Position numbers and translations under genes: made by a program. From a virus (taxonomy: Duplodnaviria; Heunggongvirae; Uroviricota; Caudoviricetes), in the IMG/VR virus record IMGVR_UViG_2534681672_000003, positions 1 through 56,022 of that record: a stretch of 56,022 nt of DNA; one strand, written 5' to 3'. The notes under the pieces were generated by a model. That model did not search any database. It was given only the letters and a program-made list of their open reading frames with translations, and was not told the DNA's origin. Below, one piece after another: positions 658 through 36,496 of the stretch (the stretch's first letter is position 1; every line of letters begins with the position of its first letter).

Positions 658-850
658 CATCCAACCGCAGCACGTTCTTGCTTAAGACGTGCTGCGGCAT
701 AATCCCAATGATTACTCCCTGACAGGGTTCGTAGGCCACTCAATATCAGGTGCAGTTGATGTATCAACACGGTTCAGCAACACCCGATACTTCTTCCAGG
801 CTTCCAGCAACGAGGTTTCTTCCTCCGTTGCATATACAGCTCACCTTTTT

Positions 851-1150
851 TCACCCACGATTAACCAACAGCCAGACCAGCAGACACGCCACCACCGGCA
901 CAGCAAAATCCATCAGACTTGCTACATCCCATGCACGTGGGTCAAAACCGCCCCACCACGGCATATTCATACGCTTGCCATGCCCGAACATTTCAATCCA
1001 GCGATATTCTGCCTGGGTATGTTCACGCGCAATGAAGAACGTACAACCGGCTATCGCCCCGTAAGCCCAGTTCCCGGTAAAAAGACCAATCAGTAGCTGC
1101 GCAGCCACAGCACAAAGCGCATGAAGGAAAGGTGTTATATCCATTTTCAT
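851..1150 (-). CDS. small hydrophobic membrane protein, unknown function
   Basis: ORF track (trimmed to ATG after an AGGA-like RBS); two hydrophobic stretches; no family recognised. Confidence 0.3.
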   Translation of the reverse strand: MKMDITPFLHALCAVAAQLLIGLFTGNWAYGAIAGCTFFIAREHTQAEYRWIEMFGHGKRMNMPWWGGFDPRAWDVASLMDFAVPVVACLLVWLLVNRG

Positions 1151-1186
1151 CCTACCCAATAAAACGGGGCGCTCGGCCCCTTAATA

Positions 1187-2227: not shown

Positions 2228-2236
2228 TTTTCTTCC

Positions 2237-2518
2237 TCACATCCAGCCACGAAGTTGATGCTCAACAGCAACCACGTATTCATCGAATATTGACGATATT
2301 TGCGAATCATTAATGATGCGCACGTTTACAAAATATCCGTCTTCCTTAACACATACCGGTTCGCCATCTTCAGTCAGTTCTCCAGTTTCTTTGTACACAT
2401 TACCTATCACGTCAATAAGAATATCATCCTGCATCGACTCGTCATCATAATAGCCAATGCTCTCCATAAAGGCCGAAAAGTCGGCCCTGTCTGCAAATTT
2501 GAGTGTTAAATCTTTCAT
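2237..2518 (-). CDS. hypothetical phage protein (tail-fibre region)
   Basis: 93-aa ORF with strong RBS, start overlapping the stf stop; no family recognised. Confidence 0.4.
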   Translation of the reverse strand: MKDLTLKFADRADFSAFMESIGYYDDESMQDDILIDVIGNVYKETGELTEDGEPVCVKEDGYFVNVRIINDSQISSIFDEYVVAVEHQLRGWM

Positions 2519-17352: not shown

Positions 17353-18141
17353 TTACGCCAGTTGTACGGACACGAACTCATCAGGGTCAGCCAGCAGCAT
17401 CAGCGGTGCTGACTGAATCATGGTGAACTCACGCGCCGGATCGCCGGTGGTCACCCAGTTTTTCGGGTAGCGGGCAGAGGCGTTAATGCCTTCGCGCTGT
17501 GCGTCCGCATCCTGAATGCAGCCATAGGTGCGCAGACCGCGTGCCTGAGTGTTCCCCAGCACCATCGTGTTGTCCGGCAGGAAGTTCTTTTTGACGCCGT
17601 TTTCCACGTACTGTCCGGAATACACGACGATGGCCACATCGCCATACATTCCCTTATAGGACACCGCTTTGCCCAGGTCTTTTACCGCTGTCTCCAGCTC
17701 GGAATGAGAGCCGCGACGGGTATCCAGCTTCTCCCTGACGGCTTTGAAAGAACGGAACAGCGCCCAGCCTTTCGGATCAAACACGATGATATTCACCACA
17801 CCGCTGGCGTTCAGCGCGTAGGCTTCGATATCGTCTGTCGGGTCATACGTGGACTTGTCACGCTTGCTCCACTCCGTGCCGCCGGACTGCGTGATGTTAT
17901 TCGCCTCACTGCGGCCCATATCCACCTCAACCGGATCGAAGGCTTCACCGGTCATGGTGTATTTGCCCTTAAGCACGGCAGAAACTGCCTGCATCTCTTC
18001 GACCTGAGCAATGGCCAGCTCTTCGTCACGCATGTTCTGCATGATGATGCGACGGCGGCGGTAAGTCGGGTCCGCCAGATTCTGCGGATCTTCATCCGGC
18101 AGGCGACGCAGGGTCATCTGCGGATTCACCTCATGCTTCGG
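17353..18141 (-). pseudogene. E: major capsid protein E, 3' fragment (codons from ...PKHEVNPQMTLRRLPDED to the stop)
   Basis: Lambda E C-terminal two-thirds; upstream reading frame hits a stop immediately past 18141, where unrelated AT-rich sequence begins. Confidence 0.9.
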
Positions 18142-18143
18142 CT
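18134..18143. repeat. left copy of 10-bp direct repeat TGCTTCGGCT (att core or target duplication)
   Basis: Identical 10-mer at 29567-29576; both copies lie in E codons K-P-K. Confidence 0.75.
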
Positions 18144-18220
18144 ACATGAGTCAAATATGAAAGGATGTGAATGATTTGATTACGTTTTAGCTATAGAATT
18201 GAAATGGAAAATCCTTGAAT

Positions 18221-18240
18221 GCAATACAACGTGCAATACA
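18221..18240. promoter_or_regulatory. candidate integrase arm-type site GCAATACAA-CGT-GCAATACA (left arm)
   Basis: Same motif in the same orientation at 29419-29438 near the other junction. Confidence 0.5.
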
Positions 18241-18277
18241 TGGATGAAAACCATCACTCATTTAACAAGAGGAATCT

Positions 18278-19183
18278 ATGCGCTCACCCAACAGAATGCA
18301 TGAACGCTCAACATTTTATAAGTATATGTCGTTGAATACCGCGAAGATTGTTCTTGATTCATGCAGCCTTAGATGGAGTTCTCCGGTCCTATTTAATGAC
18401 CCTTTTGATGTTCCAAGAGAAGTTATGCCTGGTATTAACGAAATTAATATTGGCAAAGCTTTAGCCCGCAAGTTAATAGCGGAGTTGATTACCCCCAGAG
18501 AAGACATACAAAATTTAAACCCTAGAATTAGAACAATGCTAAGTGATTTCCAAAAGTCATTTCCTTTAGGCATACCCGCAGGATTAATTGAAAGATTTCA
18601 AGAAATGGTAAACATTCCACCAGTTGGGATTGGCGCTCCTGCGGCAATACAAGAAATGAAAGATGTCTGGCGAGGAATGCTTAATAACAGAAGGATTTTG
18701 TGTTTATCTGAGAGCCCTATAATCACTCCTATGTGGAATCACTATGCCGATAAATATAAAGGTATAGTTATCGAATTTGATTGTGTAGACTTTCTGGATA
18801 GCGCTTGGTTAATAGCCAAACCTATGAAATACACAGATGAAATGCCTCTAACTCACACTGCTGAAGGGATGGCCGAGTTGCTTTTCATGCCAGACAATAA
18901 GTCAATTGAATATATCAATAATGAGATAATATTCATAAAAACAGAAGAATGGGCATATGAAAGAGAGTGGAGAATTTCAACCTACGCTAGGCCAAATAGC
19001 ACTGGTCAATATAGCGACTTAAAATTTCACCCTTTTGAGTTAAAATCTGTAATACTTGGTCCTCTTTTTGATGCCAGCGAGTTCGATGAAGTCGCATCAC
19101 TAGTTAAGATGTATCCAAGAGCGAAATTATTTAAAAGTTCATTTGGGAACGACAGAAAAATATCCATAGTACCACTACCTTAA
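18278..19183 (+). CDS. DUF2971 family protein (AT-rich cargo; candidate anti-phage function)
   Basis: N-terminal YKYMSLNTAKIVLDSCSLRWSSPVLFNDPFD matches the DUF2971 signature as recalled; AAGAGG RBS; low GC. Confidence 0.65.
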   Translation: MRSPNRMHERSTFYKYMSLNTAKIVLDSCSLRWSSPVLFNDPFDVPREVMPGINEINIGKALARKLIAELITPREDIQNLNPRIRTMLSDFQKSFPLGIPAGLIERFQEMVNIPPVGIGAPAAIQEMKDVWRGMLNNRRILCLSESPIITPMWNHYADKYKGIVIEFDCVDFLDSAWLIAKPMKYTDEMPLTHTAEGMAELLFMPDNKSIEYINNEIIFIKTEEWAYEREWRISTYARPNSTGQYSDLKFHPFELKSVILGPLFDASEFDEVASLVKMYPRAKLFKSSFGNDRKISIVPLP

Positions 19184-19223
19184 AAGGTCAAATGCTTTTG
19201 ACAAATAAAATCTATCGCCAGTT

Positions 19224-19240
19224 TTACTGGCGACTTTTAA
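19224..19240. terminator. bidirectional hairpin GCCAGT-TTT-ACTGGC between convergent genes
   Basis: Inverted repeat between the DUF2971 stop and the nu1-like stop. Confidence 0.45.
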
Positions 19241-19289
19241 GCAACAAAGAACCACCTAAGCACTCTTCCTACCTATGGTTTCATTTGTT

Positions 19290-19841
19290 TTAACTTCGCT
19301 GATTATCCTTGATATACCTTTCAGCCATATCTGGAATGTTATCTGAGATCTGGTAAGCTCGAATAAATGCTTTACTGACCTCCATCTTAATGAAGTCCTG
19401 ATACCGTTTTCCCATGCCAGGAAACTGTCGACAGATCGCAAGTGGAAGACTATCAATGATTGCTCCAACTTCCCCAGTTAATTTCGACAAGGCATAAGTC
19501 GCAAATGCAGTGTCAATTACCTCACCTGTTTCGCTGGCATTCTTCAGTTCCTGTGCGTCGGCCTGCGCACGCGTAAGTCGATGGCGTTCATACTCAATAG
19601 TCCCTGGCAGGAGATCTGCCTCGCTGGCCTGCCGCAGTTCTTCAACCTCCCGGCGCAGCTTTTCGTTCTCAATTTCAGCATCCCTTTCGGCATACCATTT
19701 TATGACGGCGGCAGAGTCATAAAGCACCTCATTACCCTTGCCACCGCCTCGCAGAACGGGCATTCCCTGCTCCTGCTAGTTCTGAATGGTACGGATACTC
19801 GCACCGAAAATGTCAGCCAGCTGCTTTTTGTTGGCTTCCAT
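19290..19841 (-). pseudogene. nu1-like small terminase subunit paralogue with in-frame TAG at codon 22 (possible restart at Met27)
   Basis: First two-thirds nearly identical at DNA level to helper nu1 (35283-35828) except TGG to TAG at 19776-19778; C-terminal third diverged. Confidence 0.7.
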
Positions 19842-19859
19842 TGTTCATTCCACGGACAA

Positions 19860-20060
19860 AACCAGAGAAAGGAAACGACAGAGGCCAAAAAGCCTGTTTT
19901 TAGCACCTGTCGTTTCCTTTCTTTTTAGGGGGTGTTTTTAATAAAAACATTAAGTTACGGCGAAGAAGAACGGAAACGCCTTAAACAGGAAAATTTTCAC
20001 AAATAGCGAAAAACTGCGCGCCTGACGCCCCGTAGCCTGTCAGATCGCCGGAAAGGACCC
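19860..20060. other. element cos site (cosB-like R-site sequences plus variant cosN at about 20019-20030)
   Basis: Aligns to helper cos at 35838-36030; flanks conserved, 12-nt overhang positions differ. Confidence 0.65.
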
Positions 20061-20086
20061 GCCAGCCAGAGCGGGCCCTAATTTCA

Positions 20087-20470
20087 TCAACCAATCAGCT
20101 TATAGCGACCATCCCGTGCATTGCGGCGTACACGCTCAATCTTGAGGCATAGCGCCGCATCTGGCTTTTTTGGGACAGGTACGCGGCAATATTCAGAAGC
20201 GCGAGGAATATTATTTATCCAGTCGATCACTTCACTTAAATACCAGGCCTTACGCCCTTCCGTAACCTGCACACGCTCCGGGAACTCTCCACTAGCCTCA
20301 AGGTTTAGCAGTGTACGACGACTCAGGGTTGTAATTTCCATCACCTGATTCATATCAACAAGGCGCTCGCTTAAACACATTTTGTCAGCGATAGCTTTTA
20401 ATTCCTCTACAGCTGGATTCGGGTACATCATTTCGGCAATTGGCTTAAGGTCATTGTAATCATTCTGCAT
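20087..20470 (-). CDS. AlpA/Xis-type HTH DNA-binding protein
   Basis: Motif TTLSRRTLLNLEASGEFPERVQVTEGRKAWYLSEVIDWI; AGGGGG RBS; last gene of the capsid operon, ending about 57 bp from cosN. Confidence 0.6.
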   Translation of the reverse strand: MQNDYNDLKPIAEMMYPNPAVEELKAIADKMCLSERLVDMNQVMEITTLSRRTLLNLEASGEFPERVQVTEGRKAWYLSEVIDWINNIPRASEYCRVPVPKKPDAALCLKIERVRRNARDGRYKLIG

Positions 20471-20481
20471 TGTATCCCCCT

Positions 20482-20823
20482 TTACACACGAGCCAGCGGC
20501 TGAACAGAAATACCTGAGCCAACAAACGCTGCAACCTTTACTGACAGTTCTTTAACAGACTCAGGCCAGTTCAGAGCATCAACATTTAAGACACCTGTCT
20601 TATAGACCTGAGCCTGTGTTTTTTTCGCGGTGTCGATTTGTACAGCGGAAACATAAACCGCTTTACCTACGCTCGAACCATCCCATACCACCAGTGCACC
20701 TGTTGCATCTTCCTGCATCAGTGGCGTAAATGCAGGAATTACCCCTTTATTAGCTGAAAATATCCCCAGCGTAGTCACCAGTGCTTCAGTGCCAGCCATG
20801 AGTTCAGTGTAATGAGTAGCCAT
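20482..20823 (-). CDS. head decoration protein, lambda D-like
   Basis: Alignable by eye to helper D (TPLM, WDG, YK-G, WPE, AF-G-IS shared); AGGGGGAG RBS. Confidence 0.7.
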   Translation of the reverse strand: MATHYTELMAGTEALVTTLGIFSANKGVIPAFTPLMQEDATGALVVWDGSSVGKAVYVSAVQIDTAKKTQAQVYKTGVLNVDALNWPESVKELSVKVAAFVGSGISVQPLARV

Positions 20824-20832
20824 TGCTCCCCC

Positions 20833-21873
20833 TTAGCCAATGCGAACGGTAACAAAACGATTGATGCGGGCCGGTATTGGCTGTGGTGCTGAATGTGTCT
20901 GCACATATTCAATAGCCGGATCACCAGGCACAATATAGTTTTTCGGTGCAAGTTCGGCTTTAGTCAGCCCCATTCGGATTAGCTCCGGATCCTGAATACC
21001 GCCATAGGCGACAATCCCCTGAAGAGCCGTATTGCCAAGCACCATCAAATCAGGATCAAGGAAATGTTTTTCTGTTCCGTCCTCGTCGGTATAACGCCCG
21101 CTGTAAACAACAATCGCAACATCGCCCATATACCCTTTAAAACTCACCGAATCACCAAGGTCTTTAAGGGCCGTTTCCAGTTCGGAATTAGAACCACGAC
21201 GGGTATCCAAAGCCTCTTTTATCGCTCTGAATGAACGGTATTTCTTCCATACATTACCACCCATAATGATGATATTAGTGACGCCCTCACTAAATTCTGC
21301 GTAGCTCTCAATATCATCATTTGGATCAAAAGTTTCTTTATCCTTACCTGACCACTCAGTACCGCCAGACTGAGTGATGATATTTTGTGGTTTTATATTC
21401 CAGTCCAGCTCATAACGTTCAATACCATCGCCCTCAATGATATTTTTCCCCGTTGTGATAGCCTGAACAGCAAGCCATTCAATACGTGCACGAATAGCTT
21501 TAGCCTGATTTACAATCGCCTGTTTAACTTTAATATTACGCGCCCCAAAAGCATTGTATTGCTCAGGTGACACACCAGCAGGGCGCACAGCTAACTTATT
21601 TGGATCAATGCTGCTTTTCGGCTTCATATAACCTGGACGAATTGTTTTTGATTCGTATCCCTCATCTCGTGAAACTTTACTGCCCACCATAGGAGAGCAA
21701 AACGCCGCGATCGGGATATTTGGATCGTCGATCGTATCAAGAATAATGTCTCTCGATTCAAACATTACCGAGCGAGTGAAAAACAAACTGGTAAACAACG
21801 CATTTAATTTTTTTTGTACATCTACAGCATTAACCACCTGTACAAGCTGAGTAGGCGAATATAAATCAACCAT
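20833..21873 (-). CDS. major capsid protein, lambda E-like (HK97 fold)
   Basis: 346 aa, alignable over the full length to helper E (ITQSGGTEWS, ALDTRRGSNSELETA, DVAIVVYSG shared); start trimmed to the ATG after AAGAGG. Confidence 0.8.
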   Translation of the reverse strand: MVDLYSPTQLVQVVNAVDVQKKLNALFTSLFFTRSVMFESRDIILDTIDDPNIPIAAFCSPMVGSKVSRDEGYESKTIRPGYMKPKSSIDPNKLAVRPAGVSPEQYNAFGARNIKVKQAIVNQAKAIRARIEWLAVQAITTGKNIIEGDGIERYELDWNIKPQNIITQSGGTEWSGKDKETFDPNDDIESYAEFSEGVTNIIIMGGNVWKKYRSFRAIKEALDTRRGSNSELETALKDLGDSVSFKGYMGDVAIVVYSGRYTDEDGTEKHFLDPDLMVLGNTALQGIVAYGGIQDPELIRMGLTKAELAPKNYIVPGDPAIEYVQTHSAPQPIPARINRFVTVRIG

Positions 21874-22074
21874 ACGCATCCTCTTTGCATTCATTAAAAA
21901 TAATTGTGGATATATGCTATCACCGATATTTGTCATGCGAACACATGCAACCGAGTGCAATGTTGTATAAAGTTTTGGGGTGACAACTTCAGTGCGGACA
22001 ATTAGTGTTAATATCTTCACTCCCTTTGGTCGGGATTTATGTAGCATGCAGGAAAATTTATTTTTTCCGGCCTT

Positions 22075-22792
22075 TTTGTGCACAGAAAACCCCCAGCTAG
22101 GCTGGGGGTTCCGGAAAGCTTTCAGCTTTGAGCCAGTTATTAAAACCCCTTTTGATTTGTTAAAACACTTTGCGGTCTGGCAACTGCAAGTGTCAAACAA
22201 GAAATCAAAAGGGGGTCCCAATGGGGAACGAAAAGAGCTTAGCGCACACCCGATGGAACTGTAAATATCACATAGTTTTTGCGCCAAAATACCGAAGACA
22301 GGTGTTCTACAGAGAGAAGCGTAGAGCAATAGGCAGTATTTTGAGAAAGCTGTGTGAGTGGAAAAGCGTACGGATTCTGGAAGCTGAATGCTGTGCAGAT
22401 CATATCCATATGCTTGTGGAGATCCCGCCCAAAATGAGCGTATCCGGGTTTATGGGATATCTGAAAGGGAAAAGCAGTCTGATGCTTTACGAGCAGTTTG
22501 GTGATTTGAAATTCAAATACAGGAACAGGGAGTTCTGGTGCAGAGGGTACTACGTCGATACAGTGGGTAAGAACACGGCGAAGATACAGGATTACATAAA
22601 GCACCAGCTTGAAGAGGATAAAATGGGAGAGCAGTTATCGATTCCCTATCCGGGCAGCCCGTTTACGGGCCGTAAGTAACGAAGTTGGATGCAAATGTCA
22701 GATCGTGTGCGCCTGTTAGGGCGCGGCTGGTAAGAGAGCCTTATAGGCGCATTTGAAAAACCTCCGGCTATGCCGGAGGATATTTATTTTAT
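22075..22792 (+). mobile_element. IS200 insertion sequence
   Basis: IS200-type TnpA flanked by terminal hairpins (about 22087-22110 and 22771-22789); boundaries approximate. Confidence 0.8.
22221..22679 (+). CDS. tnpA: IS200 transposase TnpA (Y1/HUH)
   Basis: MGNEKSLAHTRWNCKYHIVFAPKYRRQVFY... matches IS200 TnpA as recalled; trimmed to the ATG at 22221. Confidence 0.92.
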   Translation: MGNEKSLAHTRWNCKYHIVFAPKYRRQVFYREKRRAIGSILRKLCEWKSVRILEAECCADHIHMLVEIPPKMSVSGFMGYLKGKSSLMLYEQFGDLKFKYRNREFWCRGYYVDTVGKNTAKIQDYIKHQLEEDKMGEQLSIPYPGSPFTGRK

Positions 22793-22801
22793 TGGCAATA
22801 T

Positions 22802-23251
22802 TTAAAACGGGATATCATCTCCCCATTGCTCATTATCTCCCACTGGTGGCTGGCTTCCTTGCTGATCTGCCTGTTGTTTTGCTCTGTTCAGTGCGTCAGT
22901 AGCCTGCCCCTGTTGGCCTTTATTGCCGCCCGGTCGCACCGATCGCGCACTGATTACGCTGTCTGCGATAACCTGCCAGCCCTGCCGCGTTTCGCCGTTC
23001 TGTCCAGTCCACTGGCTCATCTGCATGTTACCCGCCACGCTCAGGAGTTCGCCTTTGTGATGCTTTGCCAGCGCGTCGGCTTGTCTGCCAAACGCCAGGA
23101 CAGATAACCACATCGTCGCCTGACCGTCATCCGACTGACTGCAGGGCAGTGATACCGCCATACGCGCCAACGTCATGGGGGTGCCCTTGCTGGTCTGTTT
23201 TGTCTGCGGGTCGTCCACCGACCGCCCGTAAACTGATATTTGCGCCGTCAT
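22802..23251 (-). CDS. SSB-like protein with C-terminal DDIPF tip
   Basis: Ends ...NEQWGDDIPF (SSB acidic-tip motif); glycine/glutamine-rich linker; AT-skewed neighbourhood. Confidence 0.5.
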   Translation of the reverse strand: MTAQISVYGRSVDDPQTKQTSKGTPMTLARMAVSLPCSQSDDGQATMWLSVLAFGRQADALAKHHKGELLSVAGNMQMSQWTGQNGETRQGWQVIADSVISARSVRPGGNKGQQGQATDALNRAKQQADQQGSQPPVGDNEQWGDDIPF

Positions 23252-23493
23252 GCGGCCTGCTCTCCGGACTTAATATTGATTGTTGTCACTTCCTCCGCTT
23301 CAGCAATCTCCCGTTCGGTCAGAGTGGCAAAGTTTGCAGCCGCCGTTGTCATGAATGCGCTAATCAGTTCGGGATGTGCTTTCGCGTATCCTTCCCCGGC
23401 GTTGCGGTCGATGATTTTTATCGACACCCTTAACCAGTGTTCCGTCAAATCAAGGGCGTGCGATTGTGATTTTTTTGTGTGCTTCGCTGTCAT
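23248..23493 (-). CDS. hypothetical protein
   Basis: 81-aa ORF, stop overlapping the SSB-like start. Confidence 0.35.
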   Translation of the reverse strand: MTAKHTKKSQSHALDLTEHWLRVSIKIIDRNAGEGYAKAHPELISAFMTTAAANFATLTEREIAEAEEVTTINIKSGEQAA

Positions 23494-23538
23494 AGGCTTT
23501 ATCTCACAGCAGTAAATTAAAATTTTTGCGTTTTAACC

Positions 23539-23770
23539 CTTCACCTGTTCACCTTTTGATATTTTCTCTTTTAATTCATAATGTTAATGGGTGAACAGTT
23601 TCACAAAAACTATTCACCAACTGTTCACCACTGTTCACCCTTGAAGCTCAATAAACAATCAAAAAGGTGAACAGTGAATAGTTTGGTGAACAGTTCATAA
23701 ATAACTGTTCACCCTATAATATACTGATATAAAAGATATTTATGACAGGGTGAACAGTGGTGAACAGTTA
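23539..23770. repeat. replication-origin iterons, about 9 copies of TGTTCACC / GGTGAACAG in both orientations
   Basis: Octamer recalled as the P4 alpha binding site at ori/crr; lies directly downstream of the primase-helicase gene. Confidence 0.7.
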
Positions 23771-23780
23771 TTCCATAAGT

Positions 23781-25601
23781 TTAATTTTTGCTATCGTCAT
23801 TAGTGACCGATACACATGATGGCATCCAGTCTTCTGATTCCTCCGTCAGGGTCACGTTTGAACGCAAACCGTGCTTCGTTTTCCGTTTCATATACTCCCT
23901 GCCATATTCCGCCATTGCCCCCGGCATATCTTTACCGAAGCGCGTCAGTGTTACAGGTTTACCAAACCCATGTGCCCTCATATAAGCCAGATAGGCATGA
24001 TAGAGATACCTGCGTGGGCTGAATGGCACAATTTCAGCATTACCCACTAACAGGCCATCACACATTACCGATGCCATGAGATAACCGCAGAAGTCCACCA
24101 GCGAATCCCCCTCTCGCTTTATCGCCAGTGCTTCTTCAGATTTCTGCTGCTCATATAACAGGCGTCTGGCTTCGTCCTGATCAGCAAACCTTGTAAGCAG
24201 ATGACGAATCACTACCGCCAGCTCACCTTCTATTTTTTCCGCCAGCATCGAATCGCGTTCGTTCTCCGGTACAACTTCCGAAAAATTGAATATCACCCGA
24301 CGACGTGAGATCCCCCCGCTGCGGTCACTGAATGACATGGCGTTATTGTTAACCGCCAGCACTACTGCCGGAATACGCGTTGAATAGGGGGCTTTGTGTT
24401 TCGGGTCAATTGCCACCTTGTCACCGCCTGTAATGGCCTTAATCCCTGCCCCATCACCAGCGTAGCGGGTCATATCCGGCATGATAATCAGCGAAAAGCC
24501 AACCACTAACGCACGTTCCCTTGCATCTTCCAGCGCCTTCATGCTTGCTGATACTGTATTAGCCTTACCCGCCAGCATGGTGCAAATCTCCGCCATCACA
24601 CTTTTACCACTTCCCCCCGGCCCTGTTACCTCAATGAATAACTGCCAGTCGTACCGGTTCGCCAGCACCATGAATAATGCCGCCAGTACGCGATCTGCCT
24701 TGCGGTCATTCTCAGCCACCGAACGGCGCAACCACTTCCAGAAATTCGGCGCATGTGTTGCCAGCGTTTCCCCCTCTGCTGGTGGGCTGAAAGGTAATTC
24801 ACTGGCAATTAACAACCAGTCGTTTTTGTTATGCTCCCGAAAGTTACCAGTTCTGGTATCAAATACCCCGTTACTGAATCCAATCAGGTTACGGGCTGTA
24901 TTCCCCATTACAGGCAAACTTAACTTCATGGTATCTACCGCCGATTTAATAGCGTTCTGCGAATAGCTGATCTCCGCATCAATGAAAATCTGCGCCATAG
25001 CACGCTGTAACTCTTTATCCTGAACCGGCTCCCATACAACGCCGTTGTAATGATGAACGGTGTCAGAGTCGGCATTGATTGCCAGTTCGCCGCCGTAATG
25101 TGCAAGGAGAACTTCACCGCGCTGGCTGGCCCCCATCTGATTCAACGCCAAAGATGAAGCACGCTCGTCATTTTTGCGCTCAGCCTTCTTCACTGGCAGT
25201 TCAATCACCAGACTTTCCCCATGCTCCGCTTCAGCTTTTAGGCCGACAAGGCGCGGAGTCCAGTCTTCAGGCTCTCGATCAACAAAGCTACGGTAACAAC
25301 GTGCTTCCTTTACGCCTGCAATAGCAAGTAATGTCGCAACCTTCGTCAGACTTTTCTCTGCAATCTTTCCGGCACGATAAACACGCACATAATGACGGCC
25401 TTCATCGATAATTTGCATATCATCCAGGTTTTCCAGTTGTTCCGTACCCAGAATGACTGGTGGTGTATCATCTGCTGCAATATGCTTACCTGCCCATTCA
25501 TTCCATTCTTTTGCATGGCTCCAGGCATCACTGCCAGCAAAAATGATGACTTCCGTCATTTTGTCGCGCGGTTGGTATTTTAAGTTCGGAGCACGTTTCA
25601 T
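23781..25601 (-). CDS. replication initiation primase-helicase (P4 alpha-like, P-loop NTPase)
   Basis: Walker A VTGPGGSGKS; 606 aa; GGAGG RBS; adjacent to the iteron origin. Confidence 0.65.
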   Translation of the reverse strand: MKRAPNLKYQPRDKMTEVIIFAGSDAWSHAKEWNEWAGKHIAADDTPPVILGTEQLENLDDMQIIDEGRHYVRVYRAGKIAEKSLTKVATLLAIAGVKEARCYRSFVDREPEDWTPRLVGLKAEAEHGESLVIELPVKKAERKNDERASSLALNQMGASQRGEVLLAHYGGELAINADSDTVHHYNGVVWEPVQDKELQRAMAQIFIDAEISYSQNAIKSAVDTMKLSLPVMGNTARNLIGFSNGVFDTRTGNFREHNKNDWLLIASELPFSPPAEGETLATHAPNFWKWLRRSVAENDRKADRVLAALFMVLANRYDWQLFIEVTGPGGSGKSVMAEICTMLAGKANTVSASMKALEDARERALVVGFSLIIMPDMTRYAGDGAGIKAITGGDKVAIDPKHKAPYSTRIPAVVLAVNNNAMSFSDRSGGISRRRVIFNFSEVVPENERDSMLAEKIEGELAVVIRHLLTRFADQDEARRLLYEQQKSEEALAIKREGDSLVDFCGYLMASVMCDGLLVGNAEIVPFSPRRYLYHAYLAYMRAHGFGKPVTLTRFGKDMPGAMAEYGREYMKRKTKHGLRSNVTLTEESEDWMPSCVSVTNDDSKN

Positions 25602-25885
25602 TTGTTACCTCCGGCAACTAACATTGCCCGAATTTTACGGATATAGCCTGCGGCACGCCTCTGATTATCTGTCTTGCAATTTTTTACCAGAATGAAATCT
25701 CTTTCGAACTGCTGACGCGGCATAACACATTCAAAATCATAACCATCACGCAAATAAGAGACACGACGATCATCAACCGAAATAATCTTTACCCGATAGC
25801 CATAGCTGTCTTTGAAAATATCCCCAAGGCTGATTTTTGAATGAGTTTGACCGCTGGCAATAAAGCCAGAAAATTTATTTTTCAT
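25598..25885 (-). CDS. hypothetical protein (replication operon)
   Basis: 95-aa ORF with ATGA overlap onto the primase start. Confidence 0.4.
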   Translation of the reverse strand: MKNKFSGFIASGQTHSKISLGDIFKDSYGYRVKIISVDDRRVSYLRDGYDFECVMPRQQFERDFILVKNCKTDNQRRAAGYIRKIRAMLVAGGNK

Positions 25886-25888
25886 TTT

Positions 25889-26113
25889 TTATTCTCCGGT
25901 ATAGCTCTGGTCGTGTATTTTTATAGCTTCATCCAGCTCTTTGATGACAGGATCAAGTAACGTAATTAACGCTCCAGCTAAATTAGCATCCCGTTCATCG
26001 TGTTCCGCATTTGTTGTCCCATCAAGCCAGGTTGATAAGATTTCTCGCATATTTTTGCCACAAACGAGCGCGTTTTCAGCATGTGTCAGCACTTTAAAAT
26101 AAAGATCATTCAT
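25889..26113 (-). CDS. hypothetical protein
   Basis: 74-aa ORF in the same operon. Confidence 0.35.
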   Translation of the reverse strand: MNDLYFKVLTHAENALVCGKNMREILSTWLDGTTNAEHDERDANLAGALITLLDPVIKELDEAIKIHDQSYTGE

Positions 26114-26471
26114 GGCACACCTCCTGACGAATACGGGCGGCGAATATCATCACGTAGCCAGTTGGGAATTGCTGGCGGGCTTCCTGTTCGCTGGCGGCCT
26201 CGATGTGTATTACGCGTGGTTGTGCGGTGCTCAGGGCGATAAAACGCCAGATGAAATTGTTTTCGCATTTCTGAATAAACAGCGTGTTTTCTTCACGCCC
26301 TTTCCAGAAAGCCGCAGTATAGCCCATCTCCTTAACCATCTTGCGGGCATCAACCAGCGTGTCAGCGGCAACATGTACCGTAGTTGCTCCATCTGCCATG
26401 CGGTCGTGGTGTAGTGCCAGAAAGGTGTATATAAATTTAGGGTGAGTTTGGGTATGCTGTGTTCCAGCCAT
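26106..26471 (-). CDS. hypothetical protein, first gene of the leftward operon
   Basis: 121 aa from the ATG after a GAGG RBS; the longer ORF-track version runs antisense through the neighbouring gene and was trimmed. Confidence 0.45.
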   Translation of the reverse strand: MAGTQHTQTHPKFIYTFLALHHDRMADGATTVHVAADTLVDARKMVKEMGYTAAFWKGREENTLFIQKCENNFIWRFIALSTAQPRVIHIEAASEQEARQQFPTGYVMIFAARIRQEVCHE

Positions 26472-26554
26472 AATCGTTACCTCGTTTAACGGTTTGGTTA
26501 GAAGCCCGGTTAGTGTTCGCGCACTGCCGGGTTTCGTCGTTTTTATGAATCGAT

Positions 26555-26670
26555 CATTGTGAGATACATAGCGACCATGATGTGAGATATACATTATAAT
26601 GTGGTGATATACATTGCAAGTGTTTTTATATCTCACTTTTGTGTATAGTGATATACACATAACAAATTGG
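26555..26670. promoter_or_regulatory. divergent promoter/operator region with repeated GTGAGATA(T)ACAT and GTGATATACA motifs
   Basis: At least five direct and inverted copies between the divergent operons. Confidence 0.6.
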
Positions 26671-26679
26671 TGATTAACT

Positions 26680-26982
26680 ATGTCTGTATACAAAAATGCA
26701 AAATCGCAAATGACAACGATCAGGGTTCCCCACGATGTTATGGAGGGCATGGAATCCGTAAAACTGGACGGCGAAAGCAACGCCGGATTCATAGTAACCG
26801 CCATGCGCGGTGAGATCGCCCGCCGCCAGGCAGAAGGAAGCGGAGAAAATCCCCTCGTGTCTTCACTGGATGCCTTAGCTAAGGTCGAACAAATCGGCAT
26901 CAAGGCAGCGGAGGAAATCGGGCAACTCGTAGCCGTCGCTCGTGAAGAACTCCAGCGGCGTAAAGCCAAAGAATCTGAATAA
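26680..26982 (+). CDS. putative ribbon-helix-helix (CopG/Arc-like) regulator
   Basis: TTIRVPHDVMEGMESVKL...NAGFIVTAMRGEI fits a strand-helix-helix pattern; sits beside the operator repeats. Confidence 0.4.
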   Translation: MSVYKNAKSQMTTIRVPHDVMEGMESVKLDGESNAGFIVTAMRGEIARRQAEGSGENPLVSSLDALAKVEQIGIKAAEEIGQLVAVAREELQRRKAKESE

Positions 26983-27332
26983 TTACTATCAGCGCCGTGA
27001 TGTGAGTAACTACGGCGCATTGCTATGTAAATACTGGCAATAAACAGAAAAGGTAGTTCTACTCCGAATAATTTTATCTGACACTACTCCTGAACTAACA
27101 TGCGCTTATCTTACAGGATATAAATATAGATCCATAAAATCACGATTAAATAAAGCCGCTCCAAACATAAACCACACCCAACGCTTAACAAGATAGCAAC
27201 AAACAGATAAATAACTTGCAGAAATATTTATCGCAAGGATTATCATTATTAATTACAAATCACTTTACCAAGTCATTCCCCTCTCTTATCATAAAGAGAA
27301 AGTAATAAATAAGTTAAGGGAGTTAGAATACT

Positions 27333-27869
27333 ATGAATCTAAAAAAAATAGCCACAAACATAAAAAACAAGATAATAGAAACATTCAATAAACTTATATT
27401 AGAGGCATCTAAAACCCCCACACAAGATGAAATTAAAATACTTGAGAGAAGAAGTAAAAAGTTTAATTACTCCTTTTTCTCATACGCAGTCACAGGAGCC
27501 ATAATGGTTTTTTGCTCTCAACCATTAATAAAATACGCAAACCCAATGCTTATTTTATTGAGTGGTCTGTTACTGTCTATCATCATTATCCTTCTCAGAA
27601 TGATTTATATTTCACAAGCGAATGCATCATGGACAACCAAAAAACGTTCACATGTACTAGTTCATTTTCTTTCTGCATGTTTCATAGCGTCAACATTGAC
27701 GTTGTTATATCAGGCTTACGATAATAACATCACACACAAATTGTACTGTAAAAATATACAACAACTTATTGAAAAAAGGATAGAAACAGAAAAAAATATC
27801 AGCATATTCAGTGGGATGCAATGCACCCCGGCATATGATTACTCTTTATTTGGATTTAATCTCTTATAA
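27333..27869 (+). CDS. AT-rich membrane protein (cargo, unknown function)
   Basis: 178 aa, hydrophobic segments, very low GC, preceded by about 300 bp of AT-rich DNA. Confidence 0.5.
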   Translation: MNLKKIATNIKNKIIETFNKLILEASKTPTQDEIKILERRSKKFNYSFFSYAVTGAIMVFCSQPLIKYANPMLILLSGLLLSIIIILLRMIYISQANASWTTKKRSHVLVHFLSACFIASTLTLLYQAYDNNITHKLYCKNIQQLIEKRIETEKNISIFSGMQCTPAYDYSLFGFNLL

Positions 27870-27938
27870 AGAATGTTATTACTGATTTGAGTGCAAATTC
27901 TCAAATCAGTAATTCATAATATTTTATTCTGAGATAAT

Positions 27939-28166
27939 TTAAACTACCCACTCACCTCGAATCCATGCCTGCACTTCTGAAAGACGATATGCAACAGCAG
28001 TGGAGCCAATCTTGATCCGCTTAGGAAATTTCCCTTCCTTCTCCAGCTTCCAGCGTGTGCTGTTCGCAAGAGTGGTTAGCTCCCGACATTCTTTCTCACG
28101 GATCATACGATCGATGTTAGGAATGTACTCCAAACCCTTTTTATCAACAATCGCCATTTTTTTCAT
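27939..28166 (-). CDS. alpA: AlpA-family transcriptional regulator/excisionase
   Basis: 75 aa with AlpA-type HTH (LTTLANSTRWKLEKEGKFPKRIKIG); directly downstream of int. Confidence 0.75.
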   Translation of the reverse strand: MKKMAIVDKKGLEYIPNIDRMIREKECRELTTLANSTRWKLEKEGKFPKRIKIGSTAVAYRLSEVQAWIRGEWVV

Positions 28167-28167
28167 G

Positions 28168-29403
28168 TTAACCAGCCTTTTGTTTGAGGATTATCACTTT
28201 TGAATCAGCACCTGCGATGCTATTGAGATATGTAGTCCAGAGTTCCAGAGCATCCAGTTTTTTAGCCATAAACTTACTCCGGTTGTAAACACCTGCCACG
28301 CCAGGTAGCGCATGGCCTAACAGTTGTTCTACTACATAAAATTCAACACCGAGATCACTTAGATGAGTAGATAGCGTTCTTCTAAGGTCGTGTAGTGACC
28401 ATTGTTTTTCATGGCCCAAACGTTTACCGATTTTCCCCCCAATCTTGCTTACGCTTTCTCTAATTCGCAGACTTCCCAGCACATAACCAGTATGTTTTGT
28501 CTCTTCGTGAACATCCGTTACCCACTGTCGTAGAATTTCAGGTACTGGTCTGACGATTTCAACACCAGTTTTTGAGTGATCTTTTGGTACCGTCCAAACC
28601 CAACTTTCGAGATCCCATTCGCTCCATTCAGATAATCGGGCTTCACTCATTCGACATCCAAATACTGTACAAAGCACAAACATTTTTCGCGTGTATTCAG
28701 ACATTAGTTTTAAATCAGGCTCGACAAAAATTGCCTTCCAGAGCTGGCCCAGTTCGGCTTCATCCAGAACCCGATCCCGCTTACCTGCAATCTGCCCCAC
28801 ATCACTCATGCGCAAATCCTTTAAAGCATCACATGTCGCGTACTGGCGTACCCGACAAAAACGAAGAGCTAATTTAGTGTCAGAAAAAACATACGCCGCC
28901 ATAACTGGTGCATTACGTTTAATTCGGTCAAAACAGTCCAGCCATTCATATAGGTGAGTGTCATTTACAGGCAAATGACCGATATAGGGAAAGATATGCT
29001 TTCGAAATCTGCCAAGCGTTACAGCATGAGTTTTACGACGCACCTTACAGTAATTTTCATACCAGTAATTTAGTGCATCCTCCACTGTGACCGGCTTTAA
29101 GCGTTCTTCAGCCTGAATCTTAATCTGGATACGCGGATCACGTTTGTCAGCCAACCAACCACGGCACTCGTCGCGCTTTTCCCTTGCCTGTTTGAGTGAC
29201 ATATCAGGATATTTACCCAACGTTAGCCAGACCGGAGCAGCCCGGCCACCTGCTAACCTGTAGAAGAAAACAAAGCTCACAGCCCCCTTGGTACTCACAC
29301 GAATAGAAAGCCCCTTTCCATCAGCAATGGTGATCTGCTTTTCTCTGGGTTTCCCCAGATATCCTTTAAGCGCTTTGTCGCTCAGTTTGTTCTCGCCAGC
29401 CAT
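28168..29403 (-). CDS. int: tyrosine integrase, P4/CP4-57 family with N-terminal arm-binding domain
   Basis: N-terminus LSDKALKGYLGKPREKQITIADGKGLSIRVSTKG; C-terminal HDLRRT...LLGH...Y catalytic motifs; trimmed to the ATG at 29403. Confidence 0.85.
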   Translation of the reverse strand: MAGENKLSDKALKGYLGKPREKQITIADGKGLSIRVSTKGAVSFVFFYRLAGGRAAPVWLTLGKYPDMSLKQAREKRDECRGWLADKRDPRIQIKIQAEERLKPVTVEDALNYWYENYCKVRRKTHAVTLGRFRKHIFPYIGHLPVNDTHLYEWLDCFDRIKRNAPVMAAYVFSDTKLALRFCRVRQYATCDALKDLRMSDVGQIAGKRDRVLDEAELGQLWKAIFVEPDLKLMSEYTRKMFVLCTVFGCRMSEARLSEWSEWDLESWVWTVPKDHSKTGVEIVRPVPEILRQWVTDVHEETKHTGYVLGSLRIRESVSKIGGKIGKRLGHEKQWSLHDLRRTLSTHLSDLGVEFYVVEQLLGHALPGVAGVYNRSKFMAKKLDALELWTTYLNSIAGADSKVIILKQKAG

Positions 29404-29418
29404 TTTTAGCCCCAAAAA

Positions 29419-29438
29419 GCAATACAAGCTGCAATACA
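29419..29438. promoter_or_regulatory. candidate integrase arm-type site GCAATACAA-GCT-GCAATACA (right arm)
   Basis: Matches the left-arm motif at 18221-18240. Confidence 0.5.
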
Positions 29439-29566
29439 GAGATGATTGCAACACACAGATAACGAGGAAAATTCAGTGAAAGCGCCAGATAAACTTATTC
29501 TTTATTATCAAAAGATTAAGTGTAAAAACCAGCAACTACACGAAAGCCTCAGAAAGCCATGCTAAG

Positions 29567-29576
29567 TGCTTCGGCT
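29567..29576. repeat. right copy of 10-bp direct repeat TGCTTCGGCT
   Basis: Identical to 18134-18143. Confidence 0.75.
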
Positions 29577-29811
29577 TGACATATCCCGGCGTAAATTCAG
29601 AGGTGGAGCCGCCACGGGAACGGATAACCTCACCGGAAACAATCGGCGAAACGTACAGCGCCATGTTTACAAGTCCCGGAATTTGTGAGAGATAGACTTT
29701 CTCCGTAGTGAAGGGATAGCTCTCACGGAAAAAGAGACGCAGAAACAGCGGATCAAACTTAAATTTCTGCTCATTTGCCGCCAGCAGCTGGGCGGTTGTG
29801 TACATCGACAT
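29567..29811 (-). pseudogene. E: major capsid protein E, 5' fragment (MSMYTTAQLL...GYVKPKH)
   Basis: Lambda E N-terminus; frame leaves E sequence right after KPKH at the junction. Confidence 0.9.
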
Positions 29812-29866
29812 AAAAAAATCCCGTAAAAAAAGCCGCACAGGCGGCCTTTAGTGATGAAGGGTCAGG

Positions 29867-30199
29867 TTAAACGATGCTGATTGCCGTTCCGGCAAACGCG
29901 GTCCGTTTTTTCGTCTCGTCGCTGGCAGCCTCCGGCCAGAGCACATCCTCATAACGGAACGTGCCGGACTTGTAGAACGTCAGTGTGGTGCTGGTCTGGT
30001 CAGCAGCAACCGCCAGAATGCCAACGGCAGCACCGTCGGTGGTGCCATCCCAAGCAACCAGCTTACGGGTGGAGGTGTCCAGCATCAGCGGGGTCATTGC
30101 AGGCGCTTTCGCACTCAATCCGCCGGGCGCGGTTGCGGTATGAGCCGGGTCACTGTTGCCCAGCGGCTGGTAATGGGTAAAGGTTTCTTTGCTCGTCAT
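29867..30199 (-). CDS. D: head decoration protein D
   Basis: [12 protein letters not shown]... matches lambda D. Confidence 0.95.
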
Positions 30200-30208
30200 A
30201 AACATCCC

Positions 30209-31581
30209 TTACACTGGTGTGTTCAGCAAATCGTTAACGGCATCAGATGCCGGGTTACCTGCCGCCAGCGGTGTCGGTGCCCCCTGCATCAGACGATCCA
30301 GCGCAGTGTCACTGCGCGCCTGTGCACTCTGTGGTGCTGCGGCCAGAATGCGGCGGGCCGTTTCCACGGTCATACCGGGGGTTTCTGCCAGCACGCGGGC
30401 CTGTTCTTCGCGTCCGTGAGCCTCCTCACAATTGAGGATCCCCATAATGCGGCTGTTTTCTGCCGCAACCGCTGCGGTGATCTGTGCGTTCACGTCCGGC
30501 TGCGCCGCGCTGGCGTTCTCGCCCTCTGTCGCTGACACCACGTCAGTAACGTCAGCCTGCAAAGCAGTGGCTGAAACAGTTGTTGATTGAGTCTCTTTGG
30601 TCATTCGCCCTCCTGAGAGACGGGATTTACGTGCATCCAGTGCCTCACGCATAACGGTGATCGCATCGGTGCTGTTGACAAGTTCATCAGCCAGTCCGGC
30701 ATCAATGGCCTCCTGACCGCTGTACACTGCAGCCTCGGTATCCAGCACAGCCTGCACGGACAGGCCGGTATATGCCGACACCTTCTGCGCAAACATCCGG
30801 CGGGTTGCATCCATCCGGGACTGCAGTGTCTCCCGGACGTCATCCGGAAGATGGCTGTAGGGGTTGCCATCCACCTTATGGCTGCCGCTGTAAATCAGCG
30901 TGATTTCCACGCCCTGTTTCTCCAGCGCAGCACCGTTTGCCATCCACCTTATGGCTGCCGCTGTAAATCAGCGTGATTTCCACGCCCTGTTTCTCCAGCG
31001 CAGCACCGTAATTACTGTGAGCCATCATGACGCCGATGGAGCCTGTCCGGGCGGTCTGCGTGACCAGACGCCGGGAGGCGGCACTGGCAAGCAACTGACC
31101 TGCACTGCAGTTCATGTCGTTGGCAAGCGTCCATACCGGTTTTATGTCACGCACACGGGCGATGATGTCAGCGCAGTCAAATGCCCCCGCCACCATCCCG
31201 CCGGGCGTGTCCATATCGAGCAGAATGCCGTCCACCATCGGATCGCTGGCAGCCTGTTGCAGACGGGCGATAATGCCGTTGTAACCGGTCATCCCCGAGT
31301 ACGGCTGCAGCGCCCGCGTCCGGCTGACCAGCGTGCCGGACACCGGCAGCACGGCGATGCCGTTCATGACCTGATAACTGCGGGCCTGTCGTGGTCCGTC
31401 ATCATCACCGGATAATGCCAGCGTCGCGAGTGCCTCCTGGGCAGTCAGGCTGTCGCCGGACACCGCATCCGTCAGGCGGCTGATCCCAAGCTGGCCTGCA
31501 AGCGCACAAAAGAAAACCCGCGCATAGGCGGGTTCAAGCATCAGCGGCTCATTAAAGGCCATACTGGCAATATGCGGGAGA

Positions 31582-31602: not shown

Positions 31603-35282
<3,680 letters not shown>

Positions 35283-35308
<26 letters not shown>

Positions 35309-35828
35309 TCAGCAACCCCGGTATCAGTTCATCCAGCGCGGCTGCTTTGTTCATGGCTTTGATGATATCCCGTTTCAGGAAATCAACATGTCGGTTTTCC
35401 AGTTCCGGAAAACGCCGCTGCACCGACAGGGGGATCCCGTCGAGAATACTGGCAATTTCACCTGCGATCCGCGACAACACGAAAGTACAGAATGCGGTTT
35501 CCACCACTTCAGCGGAGTCTCTGGCATTCTTCAGTTCCTGTGCGTCGGCCTGCGCACGCGTAAGTCGATGGCGTTCGTACTCAATAGTCCCTGGCTGGAG
35601 ATCTGCCTCGCTGGACTGCCGCAGTTCTTCAACCTCCCGGCGCAGCTTTTCGTTCTCAATTTCAGCATCCCTTTCGGCATACCATTTTATAACGGCGGCA
35701 GAGTCATAAAGCACCTCATTACCCTTGCCACCGCCTCGCAGAACGGGCATTCCCTGTTCCTGCCAGTTCTGAATGGTACGGATACTCGCACCGAAAATGT
35801 CAGCCAGCTGCTTTTTGTTGACTTCCAT
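35283..35828 (-). CDS. nu1: terminase small subunit Nu1
   Basis: 181 aa, MEVNKKQLADIFGASIRTIQNWQEQGMPVLRGG... matches lambda Nu1. Confidence 0.96.
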
Positions 35829-35837
35829 TGTTCATTC

Positions 35838-36030
35838 CACGGCCAAAAACAGAGAAAGGAAACGACAAAGGCCCAAAAGTTCGTTTTCAGCACCTGTCGT
35901 TTCCTTTCTTTTCAGGGGGTATTTTAAATAAAAACATTAAGTTACGACGAAGAAGAACGGAAACGCCTTAAACCGGAAAATTTTCATAAATAGCGAAAAC
36001 CCGCGAGGTCGCCGCCCCGTAACCTGTCGG
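35838..36030. other. prophage cos site (cosB R sites plus cosN; 12-nt cohesive end at 36006-36017)
   Basis: Plus strand AGGTCGCCGCCC is the reverse complement of lambda GGGCGGCGACCT; flanks match the lambda genome ends as recalled. Confidence 0.9.
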
Positions 36031-36496
36031 ATCGCCGGAAAGGACCCGTTGGCCGTTCTGGTCTACTTCGTAATGGGATTTAATAGCTGAACGACAAAAG
36101 TCTTGCGACCACAGTCACACAGACCTGAATACACGTCCTGTTTCTTCCACCCCCGCACAGGACTGGCGAGCATGAGGGACACCCCCGCGAACCATAAACG
36201 CGGTAAAAACCCGGTGTGCATCGTTTTTGATTATTCCCGCACACTCACGCAGAAGGAATTCCCCGTCGGGCTACGGTCATGGTTAATGCGGGAATACGGC
36301 GACGATACAGCGCAGCTAAAAGGGTAATGGACAGATAGAGCGGTTTATTTCATTCCACAGGATTCTGAGTGCCCCCCCCCTCCTCCAATAGGCTGAGCAT
36401 CCACCTATATAGTTTTAATTTTCATCAATCCATTTAACTATCGTTTAATTGTTGTCACATAGGATTCTGCCGTTTTTAACAATGCAGGATAATAAG

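Follow-up and report, generated by a model that had tools for sequence, protein, structure and literature searches.

A satellite with a lambda-type cos, embedded in the capsid gene of its lambda-like helper, and its plausible packaging as a multimer

The window considered here (the whole stretch of DNA analysed, 56,022 nucleotides) carries a lambda-like helper prophage at the argU/DLP12 site, the major capsid gene of which is split by an element of 11.4 kb. The locus raises the question of what this element is, and how a DNA about one quarter the length of the lambda genome may travel in phage particles. A preliminary description had proposed that an element with a cos and a lambda-type shell could be packaged as a cos-to-cos multimer.

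A satellite inside helper gene E

The element is a phage-inducible chromosomal island (PICI) of the helper-embedded kind (HE-PICI), from the published E_Phage_cap_E_80 group, whose members lie at gene E codon 80-83 of lambda-like prophages. It is an already catalogued kind of phage satellite inside a lambda-like prophage capsid gene, and the group was described by Tommasini, Mageeney and Williams 2023 (PMC10111431). This identity rests on the match of att core, insertion site, gene order and length to the group. The junctions are as follows.

17353..18133, minus strand: helper major capsid gene E, C-terminal fragment (codon 83 onward)
18134..18143, no strand: left att core TGCTTCGGCT, a sequence match to the group's published att identity
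18144..29566, minus strand: satellite body (HE-PICI, capE group), 11,423 bp
29567..29576, no strand: right att core TGCTTCGGCT, core-to-core spacing 11,433 bp
29577..29822, minus strand: helper gene E, N-terminal fragment (codons 1-82), ending ...YVKPKH at the core

The two cores form a 10-bp direct repeat that is the entry for this group in the published table, 'agccgaagca' on the gene strand (PMC10111431). The length of 11423 bp first given for the element (18144-29566) is exact as the span strictly between the cores, and the excisable unit, which includes one core, measures 11,433 bp. Two group members, Eco112.11 and Eco9645.11, are listed at exactly this length within a composite at a tRNA-Arg site (PMC10111431). 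Gene E is split between ...YVKPKH and EVNPQ, near codon 80, and in-silico deletion of 18144-29576 yields an uninterrupted 341-aa helper major capsid gene whose product is identical to lambda gpE at 337 of 341 positions (99%). The satellite genes share a strand with the helper head genes, the same orientation as in the group; the satellite body has a G+C content of 32-51%, for the most part 41-49%, compared with 57-60% for the head genes on either side. Within the body, the following features were located.

18278..19183, plus strand: DUF2971 cargo gene, matching the candidate defence family PDC-S31
19290..19841, minus strand: Nu1-type small terminase gene (terS), with a TAG at codon 22 (19776-19778)
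20087..20470, minus strand: second AlpA-family helix-turn-helix protein, 127 aa, adjoining cos
20482..20823, minus strand: head decoration protein (gpD family)
20833..21873, minus strand: major capsid protein (gpE family)
22078..22786 (approx.), plus strand: IS200C insertion, 709 bp, between ssb and the capsid gene
22802..23251, minus strand: single-stranded DNA-binding protein (ssb)
23590..23778, no strand: iterons (GGTGAACAGT... repeats), just downstream of the primase gene
23781..25601, minus strand: primase/helicase (D5_N, DUF5906 and Pox_D5 domains)
27939..28166, minus strand: AlpA (excisionase/activator)
28168..29403, minus strand: tyrosine integrase targeting gene E

This order follows the PICI plan of four zones (one for integration, one regulatory, one for replication that contains pri and ori, and a late zone with captured late genes), and the unit lies within the 10-20 kb size range. 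The iterons are the presumed replication origin, in agreement with the ori location given in PMC10111431. The int gene adjoins alpA, and the integrase belongs to the HE-PICI clade by sequence identity, sharing 99-100% identity with its counterparts in 13 loci of the group. Compared with the listed member Eco8515.11 of strain 95-3322, the element is 98-99% identical except for the IS200, and its int-bearing segment (22787-30600) shows 99% DNA identity to Eco8515.11 in CP027461. The full head module of a capsid-forming PICI is not present: only the capsid and decoration genes and a terS pseudogene were found, with no portal, protease/scaffold or size-determining gene among the element's genes.

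The IS200C bounds were placed by comparison with the IS-free relative in strain 95-3322. The insertion contains tnpA (annotated so in the near-identical strain SCU-102), an STnc490 RNA at 22088-22211, the only Rfam match, and an end hairpin at 22761-22779. An IS200 copy and a remainder of about 10.7 kb had both been noted before; removal of the 709 bp leaves about 10,724 bp, and the published table gives 10,722 bp for the 95-3322 relative. The IS200, with its terminator-like hairpin, sits upstream of the capsid genes, between the late genes and upstream transcription. A promoter scan gave scores at background level.

The cos sites and terminase genes

Self-comparison of the window revealed a 558-bp satellite stretch that is 92.7% identical to the helper cos and the 5′ part of Nu1.

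19866..20060, minus strand: satellite cos (cosQ 20054-20060; 12-nt cohesive-end sequence GGGCGTCAGGCG 20019-20030; cosB elements R3 19963-19978, R2 19909-19923 and R1 19866-19879)
35853..36047, minus strand: helper cos; cohesive end GGGCGGCGACCT (canonical lambda sequence) at 36006-36017
33383..35828, minus strand: helper terminase genes (Nu1 35283-35828; A 33383-35308)

The element thus carries one complete lambda-type cos (cosQ, cosN, and R3, R2 and R1 at lambda spacing), colinear with that of its helper. The satellite cosQ, R3, R2 and R1 match those of the helper exactly and lie in the same register at an offset of 15,987 bp, so the cosB is not of the PICI-specific kind that differs from the helper's. 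The cohesive end differs from the helper's at 5 of its 12 positions (6, 8, 9, 10 and 12), and both flanking CG dinucleotides are kept. Positions 7-12 tolerate change in published genetics (PMC4669245); position 6 falls within the cosN half reported as sensitive to change. The satellite allele also occurs natively, as the cos of an intact lambda-like phage contig whose Nu1 and gpA are 98.3% and 99.2% identical to those of the helper. A search of the window for the lambda cohesive end with up to 2 mismatches returned only the helper cos, and a match at 25084 in the primase gene was rejected as a second cos, being at chance level.

The satellite terS is chimeric, with helper-like amino acids 1-102 and a divergent C-terminal, TerL-binding half; a DNA search of 50,697 phage records with the divergent 3′ half gave no matches. 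The allele is intact in strain 95-3322 (183 aa), and terS is absent from most group members. An Rpp protein heterodimerising with the helper TerS was sought by tblastn with RppA, which gave a best E=0.026 in the element and no hit at E<=1e-3 in 56 related loci. The cos-adjacent protein was considered as an Rpp and rejected, since a search of solved structures returned AlpA only.

Unit length, shell and packaging

The earlier estimate that four copies, about 43 to 46 kb, would lie in the lambda range holds on recalculation. Taking the packageable range as 78-105% of lambda's 48.5 kb, four copies amount to 42.9-45.7 kb (88-94%), three copies to 66-71% and five to 110-118%, making four the sole fitting multiple. 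The length arithmetic itself has almost no evidential weight and discriminates between no hypotheses, because some integer multiple falls in this range for about 90% of units between 5 and 25 kb, the sole failures being lengths of 16.98-18.9 kb. The one-quarter ratio may therefore be a coincidence of gene content and common descent rather than a length selected by packaging, a reading given slightly less than an even chance. Across 35 published pairs of the group, the median helper-to-satellite length ratio is 4.41 rather than 4.0, and an integer multiple falls at 85-102% of the helper's own length. Sixty family members have a median of 11,077 bp (interquartile range 10.9-11.35 kb); this tight clustering, uncorrected for phylogeny and expected among close relatives, was rejected as a sign of selection. 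Against coincidence, 57 of the 60 lie in the four-copy band (9.46-12.73 kb) despite many different gene profiles, the sub-lineage represented here gained terS and DUF2971 without exceeding the rest in length, and a marker that changed the size of the E. coli satellite EcCICFT073 lowered its transfer (PMC6092414).

The precedent for multimer packaging comes from this best-studied relative. In particles, EcCICFT073 yields phage-sized DNA only and no small heads (Fillol-Salom 2018, PMC6092414), and its transfer does not require the capsid and decoration genes that it carries (PMC6092414); an E. coli model PICI is packaged as concatemers of about 45 kb (PMC10111431). A multimer is on these grounds the expected mode for the present element, plausible and not new, having already been shown for EcCICFT073. 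The proposal of cos-to-cos packaging stands in so far as its prerequisites, a cos and a helper gpE that is 99% lambda, are in place and the precedent exists; the shell that matters, in turn, would be the helper's and not the element's. Helper head capacity should equal that of lambda because the restored gpE is 99% identical to lambda gpE. Packaging as a tetramer in a normal lambda head is accordingly favoured, by a modest margin over its negation.

To the identity, boundaries and cos established above, relatives add a probable packaging cycle. Induction of the helper would lead to excision by the satellite Int and AlpA, restoring gene E. The element's primase and iteron ori could then generate head-to-tail concatemers with one cos per 11.4 kb. 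Helper Nu1/gpA terminase would bind the lambda-type cosB of the satellite, nick cosN and proceed to fill a normal T=7 lambda head. The cos sites met before about 78% fill would be passed over and the fourth downstream cos cut, so that the DNA in a particle would be a tetramer of 45.7 kb (42.9 kb where the copies lack the IS). The 56 viral contigs with the satellite cohesive-end allele included no copy that was excised, circular or cos-ended, and showed neither attP junctions nor terminal overlaps; the contigs of about 11 kb in this set are integrated copies bounded by gene E fragments and are uninformative on packaging. The sole published attempt to recover capE HE-PICI particles failed.

The satellite's own shell proteins suggest a different outcome, in which they redirect assembly to a smaller shell holding one or two units. 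Both are intact, diverged from their helper counterparts (42% identity to helper gpE, 38% to helper gpD) and conserved at 98-100% across about 45 group loci; scaled simply by volume, a T=3 shell would hold about 13.6 kb and a T=4 shell about 21 kb, so that one or two units could fit, and PmCI172, which encodes a capsid homologue, makes small heads. Deletion of capsid or decoration gene in EcCICFT073 left transfer and interference unchanged, and the present element has neither a portal, protease/scaffold nor size-determining gene, unlike cf-PICIs. The former argument is an extrapolation to satellite proteins that share 55% identity with EcCICFT073 c1499 (capsid, PDB 3BQW) and 54% with c1500 (decoration). 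A small shell is nonetheless judged improbable. Equally remote is a fuller version in which the capsid and decoration pair would build a T=3 or T=4 shell with the helper portal and scaffold while the non-helper cohesive-end allele blocks joining of satellite to helper ends, a packaging unlike the EcCICFT073 tetramers.

A further reading concerns this particular copy, which looks impaired by the terS stop, the IS200 upstream of the capsid genes and a frameshift in helper gene C.

30864..31009, minus strand: perfect 73-bp tandem duplication in helper gene C (prohead protease/scaffold), causing the frameshift

The frame of gene C shifts after about codon 221 of 439, and the same gene is broken by an internal stop in the helper that carries the 95-3322 relative. 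The satellite could thus be a decaying relic that is not packaged from the lysogen here, its length match inherited from functional ancestors. This is rather unlikely, though less so than a small shell: the genes for integrase, AlpA, primase, capsid and decoration protein are intact, as are ori and cos; terS may be unneeded, as most group members lack it; tandem duplications revert readily, and this one could be an assembly error; and a superinfecting lambda-like phage could serve as helper.

If confirmed, tetramer packaging in the helper head would only extend the EcCICFT073 finding to helper-embedded satellites. One lambda-head injection would then deliver four satellite copies together with a candidate defence gene, and integer fractions of the helper headful would set the limit on how large satellite cargo can be. 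The annotation itself is of practical use: it describes helper and satellite as one complete composite, whose boundaries are exact, whose cos is mapped and whose lesions can be identified, and it could guide a first particle-level experiment on the capE satellite group.

Comparison with known satellites and cosmids

A satellite-encoded homologue of the major capsid protein is shared with cf-PICIs and with SaPIbov5 (Ccm). Redirection to small shells by such homologues has been shown for SaPIbov5 and proposed for PmCI172. These satellites differ in using small capsids that hold a monomer, and cf-PICIs also encode portal, protease, connectors and terminase, none of which is found here. P4, whose helper is P2, is comparable as a cos satellite of 11.6 kb that encodes a D5-type primase and an integrase. 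It normally travels as monomers in small T=4 heads made through Sid, whereas the present element has a lambda-like helper and no Sid-like gene; when size redirection fails, full-size P2 heads can take up P4 as dimers or trimers. Lambda cosmids offer a simpler parallel, as small replicons bearing a lambda cos: their packaging from cos to cos succeeds only when the cut sites lie about 38-51 kb apart, and they are hence packaged as multimers. Unlike a cosmid, the element is natural, integrating and self-replicating, and carries structural-gene homologues and a different cohesive-end sequence.

EcCICFT073, the model cos PICI of Gram-negative bacteria, is syntenic with the element in gene order, has a similar length of about 11 kb, and carries gpE-like and gpD-like genes with cos downstream; it depends on lambda or phi80 terminase and yields phage-sized particle DNA (Fillol-Salom 2018 and 2019). 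Its integration site is chromosomal, whereas the element here resides in a prophage. EcCICFT073 carries two cos sites, their cohesive end canonical and their cosB non-lambda, in contrast to the lambda-type cosB described above, and it needs RppA to retarget the helper TerS, a protein with no homologue here.

The closest likeness is to HE-PICI 11capE, which shares the gene E site, the 10-bp att identity, the orientation relative to helper late genes, a length of about 11 kb and the layout of int-alpA, regulatory genes, pri-ori and capsid-decoration-cos. The original 11capE is without terS and its cosB has drifted from that of its helper. The sub-lineage represented here has instead helper-type R3, R2 and R1, a chimeric Nu1-type terS (a pseudogene in this copy) and DUF2971 cargo, to which the present copy adds its IS200.

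Composition of the helper-satellite composite

The minus strand of the window encodes a complete lambda-like prophage, which differs from the argU/DLP12-site prophage of E. coli SCU-102 only by six substitutions and one 73-bp duplication. Its head genes are arranged in the order cos-Nu1-A-W-B-C-D-E, and gene E lies in two pieces, with codons 1-82 ending at 29577 and the remainder starting from 18133. Alignment with SCU-102 indicates that the right end of the window (55966-56022) truncates a tRNA-Arg gene adjoining the helper integrase, which explains why no tRNA was detected in the window. Essentially all of the helper-satellite composite is covered by the window. The tail-fibre region of this helper prophage contains an internal repeat (3943-4377) formed by two overlapping 246-bp segments of 85% identity, offset by 189 bp.

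The insert within gene E is low in G+C and carries a satellite-type gene set, listed here from its integrase end:

Integrase and AlpA
Small regulatory region
D5-type primase, followed by iterons
SSB
IS200, between SSB and the capsid genes
Capsid protein of the gpE family and decoration protein of the gpD family
20087-20470, another AlpA-family protein of 127 aa, flanked by the decoration gene and cos
cos site, followed by a Nu1-type terS (19290-19841)
18278-19183, opposite strand, DUF2971 gene at the far end of the satellite

The second AlpA-family protein is 95-100% conserved across nearly all related loci, with a single outlier at 78%. The DUF2971 gene is a hit to PDC-S31, a candidate defence family in PADLOC (E=2.5e-32), and is likely to be anti-phage cargo. 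The IS200C copy contains an STnc490 RNA and three of the six substitutions relative to SCU-102 (22367, 22448 and 22562); its end hairpin (22761-22779) is terminator-like on the satellite coding strand, upstream of the capsid genes.

Both satellite junctions (18134-18143 and 29567-29576) carry the 10-bp direct repeat TGCTTCGGCT. In silico deletion of 18144-29576 restores an intact gpE of 341 aa, with four residues different from those of lambda gpE (PDB 7VI9). The 11,423 bp assigned to the element in the preliminary description (18144-29566) are exactly the DNA between the two repeat cores, and the excised unit measures 11,433 bp. The earlier estimate of about 10.7 kb without IS200 is likewise borne out: compared with an IS-free relative, the insertion sequence spans approximately 22078-22786 (709 bp), leaving about 10,724 bp.

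This satellite is an already known element rather than a new one. Helper-embedded phage-inducible chromosomal islands (HE-PICIs) were described by Tommasini, Mageeney and Williams in 2023 (PMC10111431), who mapped 201 of them, the E_Phage_cap_E_80 group, to the same gene E site with the att identity agccgaagca; the TGCTTCGGCT core in the window is its reverse complement. Two entries in their table are exactly 11,433 bp long and reside within a 58-kb composite at a tRNA-Arg site, while the IS-free relative in strain 95-3322 is tabulated at 10,722 bp. The median of the 60 listed lengths for the group is 11,077 bp (interquartile range 10.9-11.35 kb).

The satellite cos site and terS

The satellite segment 19504-20061 (558 bp) is 92.7% identical to the helper cos and the 5′ part of Nu1. 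cosQ, R3, R2 and R1 are identical in the two elements and in the same register. The 12-nt cohesive end reads GGGCGTCAGGCG in the satellite (20019-20030) and GGGCGGCGACCT in the helper (36006-36017), with changes at positions 6, 8, 9, 10 and 12 and retention of both flanking CG dinucleotides. Of the 56 IMG/VR contigs that carry the GGGCGTCAGGCG allele, about 50 are satellites of the E_Phage_cap_E_80 group, and three others (L013, L047 and L057) present helper-type contexts. In L047, an intact lambda-like phage, gene E is unbroken, and Nu1 and gpA are 98.3% and 99.2% identical to those of the window's helper. According to Feiss et al. (2015, PMC4669245), cohesive-end positions 7-12 are naturally variable and changes there are tolerated, whereas cosQ and the CG on either side are conserved. 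From these observations we infer that the helper terminase would be able to cut the satellite cos.

EcCICFT073, the model Gram-negative cos PICI, relies on Rpp retargeting (PMC6739421). In contrast, no Rpp homologue was found in the satellite, and its cosB is of the helper type, so that it is expected to act as an ordinary lambda cos substrate. The satellite terS is chimeric: residues 1-102, comprising the DNA-binding and oligomerisation parts, are 97% identical to helper Nu1, whereas identity falls to only about 40% in the C-terminal TerL-binding half, for which the phage collection contains no DNA match. An intact copy of this gene might act at cosB in competition with helper Nu1.

Unit length and the lambda headful

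Lambda heads accept DNA of 78-105% of 48.5 kb. At 56 kb, the composite in the window amounts to 115% of lambda and is too long to be packaged whole, in keeping with the view in the literature that excision of the satellite has to come first. It had been proposed that four tandem copies would fill one lambda head. Indeed, four copies (45.7 kb with the IS, 42.9 kb without) are the sole multiple within this range, three copies reaching 66-71% and five copies 110-118% of lambda. In each of 35 published satellite/helper pairs of the group, some integer multiple of the satellite comes to 85-102% of the length of its helper: four copies in 32 pairs, three copies in two, and either four or five in one. 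However, for approximately 90% of unit lengths from 5 to 25 kb some multiple fits 78-105%, and the median helper/satellite length ratio of these pairs is 4.41. Chance alone would therefore be expected to produce the quarter-headful match, and the length arithmetic is not evidence on its own, having no discriminating power.

Packaging mode and the EcCICFT073 precedent

EcCICFT073, an island of about 11 kb located between roxA and phoQ, has the same gene order as the satellite, and its capsid protein c1499 (PDB 3BQW) and decoration protein c1500 share 55% and 54% identity with the satellite proteins. In a lambda/EcCICFT073 lysogen, the packaged DNA was all phage-sized, deletion of c1499 or c1500 left transfer and interference unaffected, and a size-changing marker reduced transfer; the terminase was proposed to pass over every cos it meets before the head has filled (Fillol-Salom et al. 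2018, PMC6092414). By analogy, the normal mode of this satellite type would probably be packaging of a tetramer in T=7 heads built by the helper. A smaller shell assembled from the satellite's own capsid and decoration pair would fit the conservation of that pair, the small heads made by the satellite PmCI172, and a crude volume scaling that permits one unit in a T=3 head and two in a T=4 head. The EcCICFT073 data are contrary to it, which makes such a shell improbable.

Even if tetramers are the usual cargo, mobilisation of this particular copy from its current host may not be possible, a scenario we consider real though rather unlikely. Its terS bears a TAG at codon 22 (19776-19778), while other strains, 95-3322 among them, have an intact allele (183 aa); the terminator-like hairpin of IS200 separates the capsid genes from ssb; and in helper gene C, encoding the S49 prohead protease/scaffold, a perfect tandem duplication of 73 bp (30864-31009) causes a frameshift beyond about codon 221 of 439. 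The SCU-102 prophage, near-identical elsewhere, lacks this duplication, which might have arisen by recent mutation or reflect an assembly artefact. An internal stop is also present in gene C of the helper that carries the 95-3322 satellite.

The sole reported attempt to recover HE-PICI particles was unsuccessful, and no later paper on it was found. The multimer interpretation is reasonable, and for this family both the observation and its interpretation have been published before: given the results obtained with EcCICFT073, multimer packaging is the accepted view for the nearest model of this satellite.
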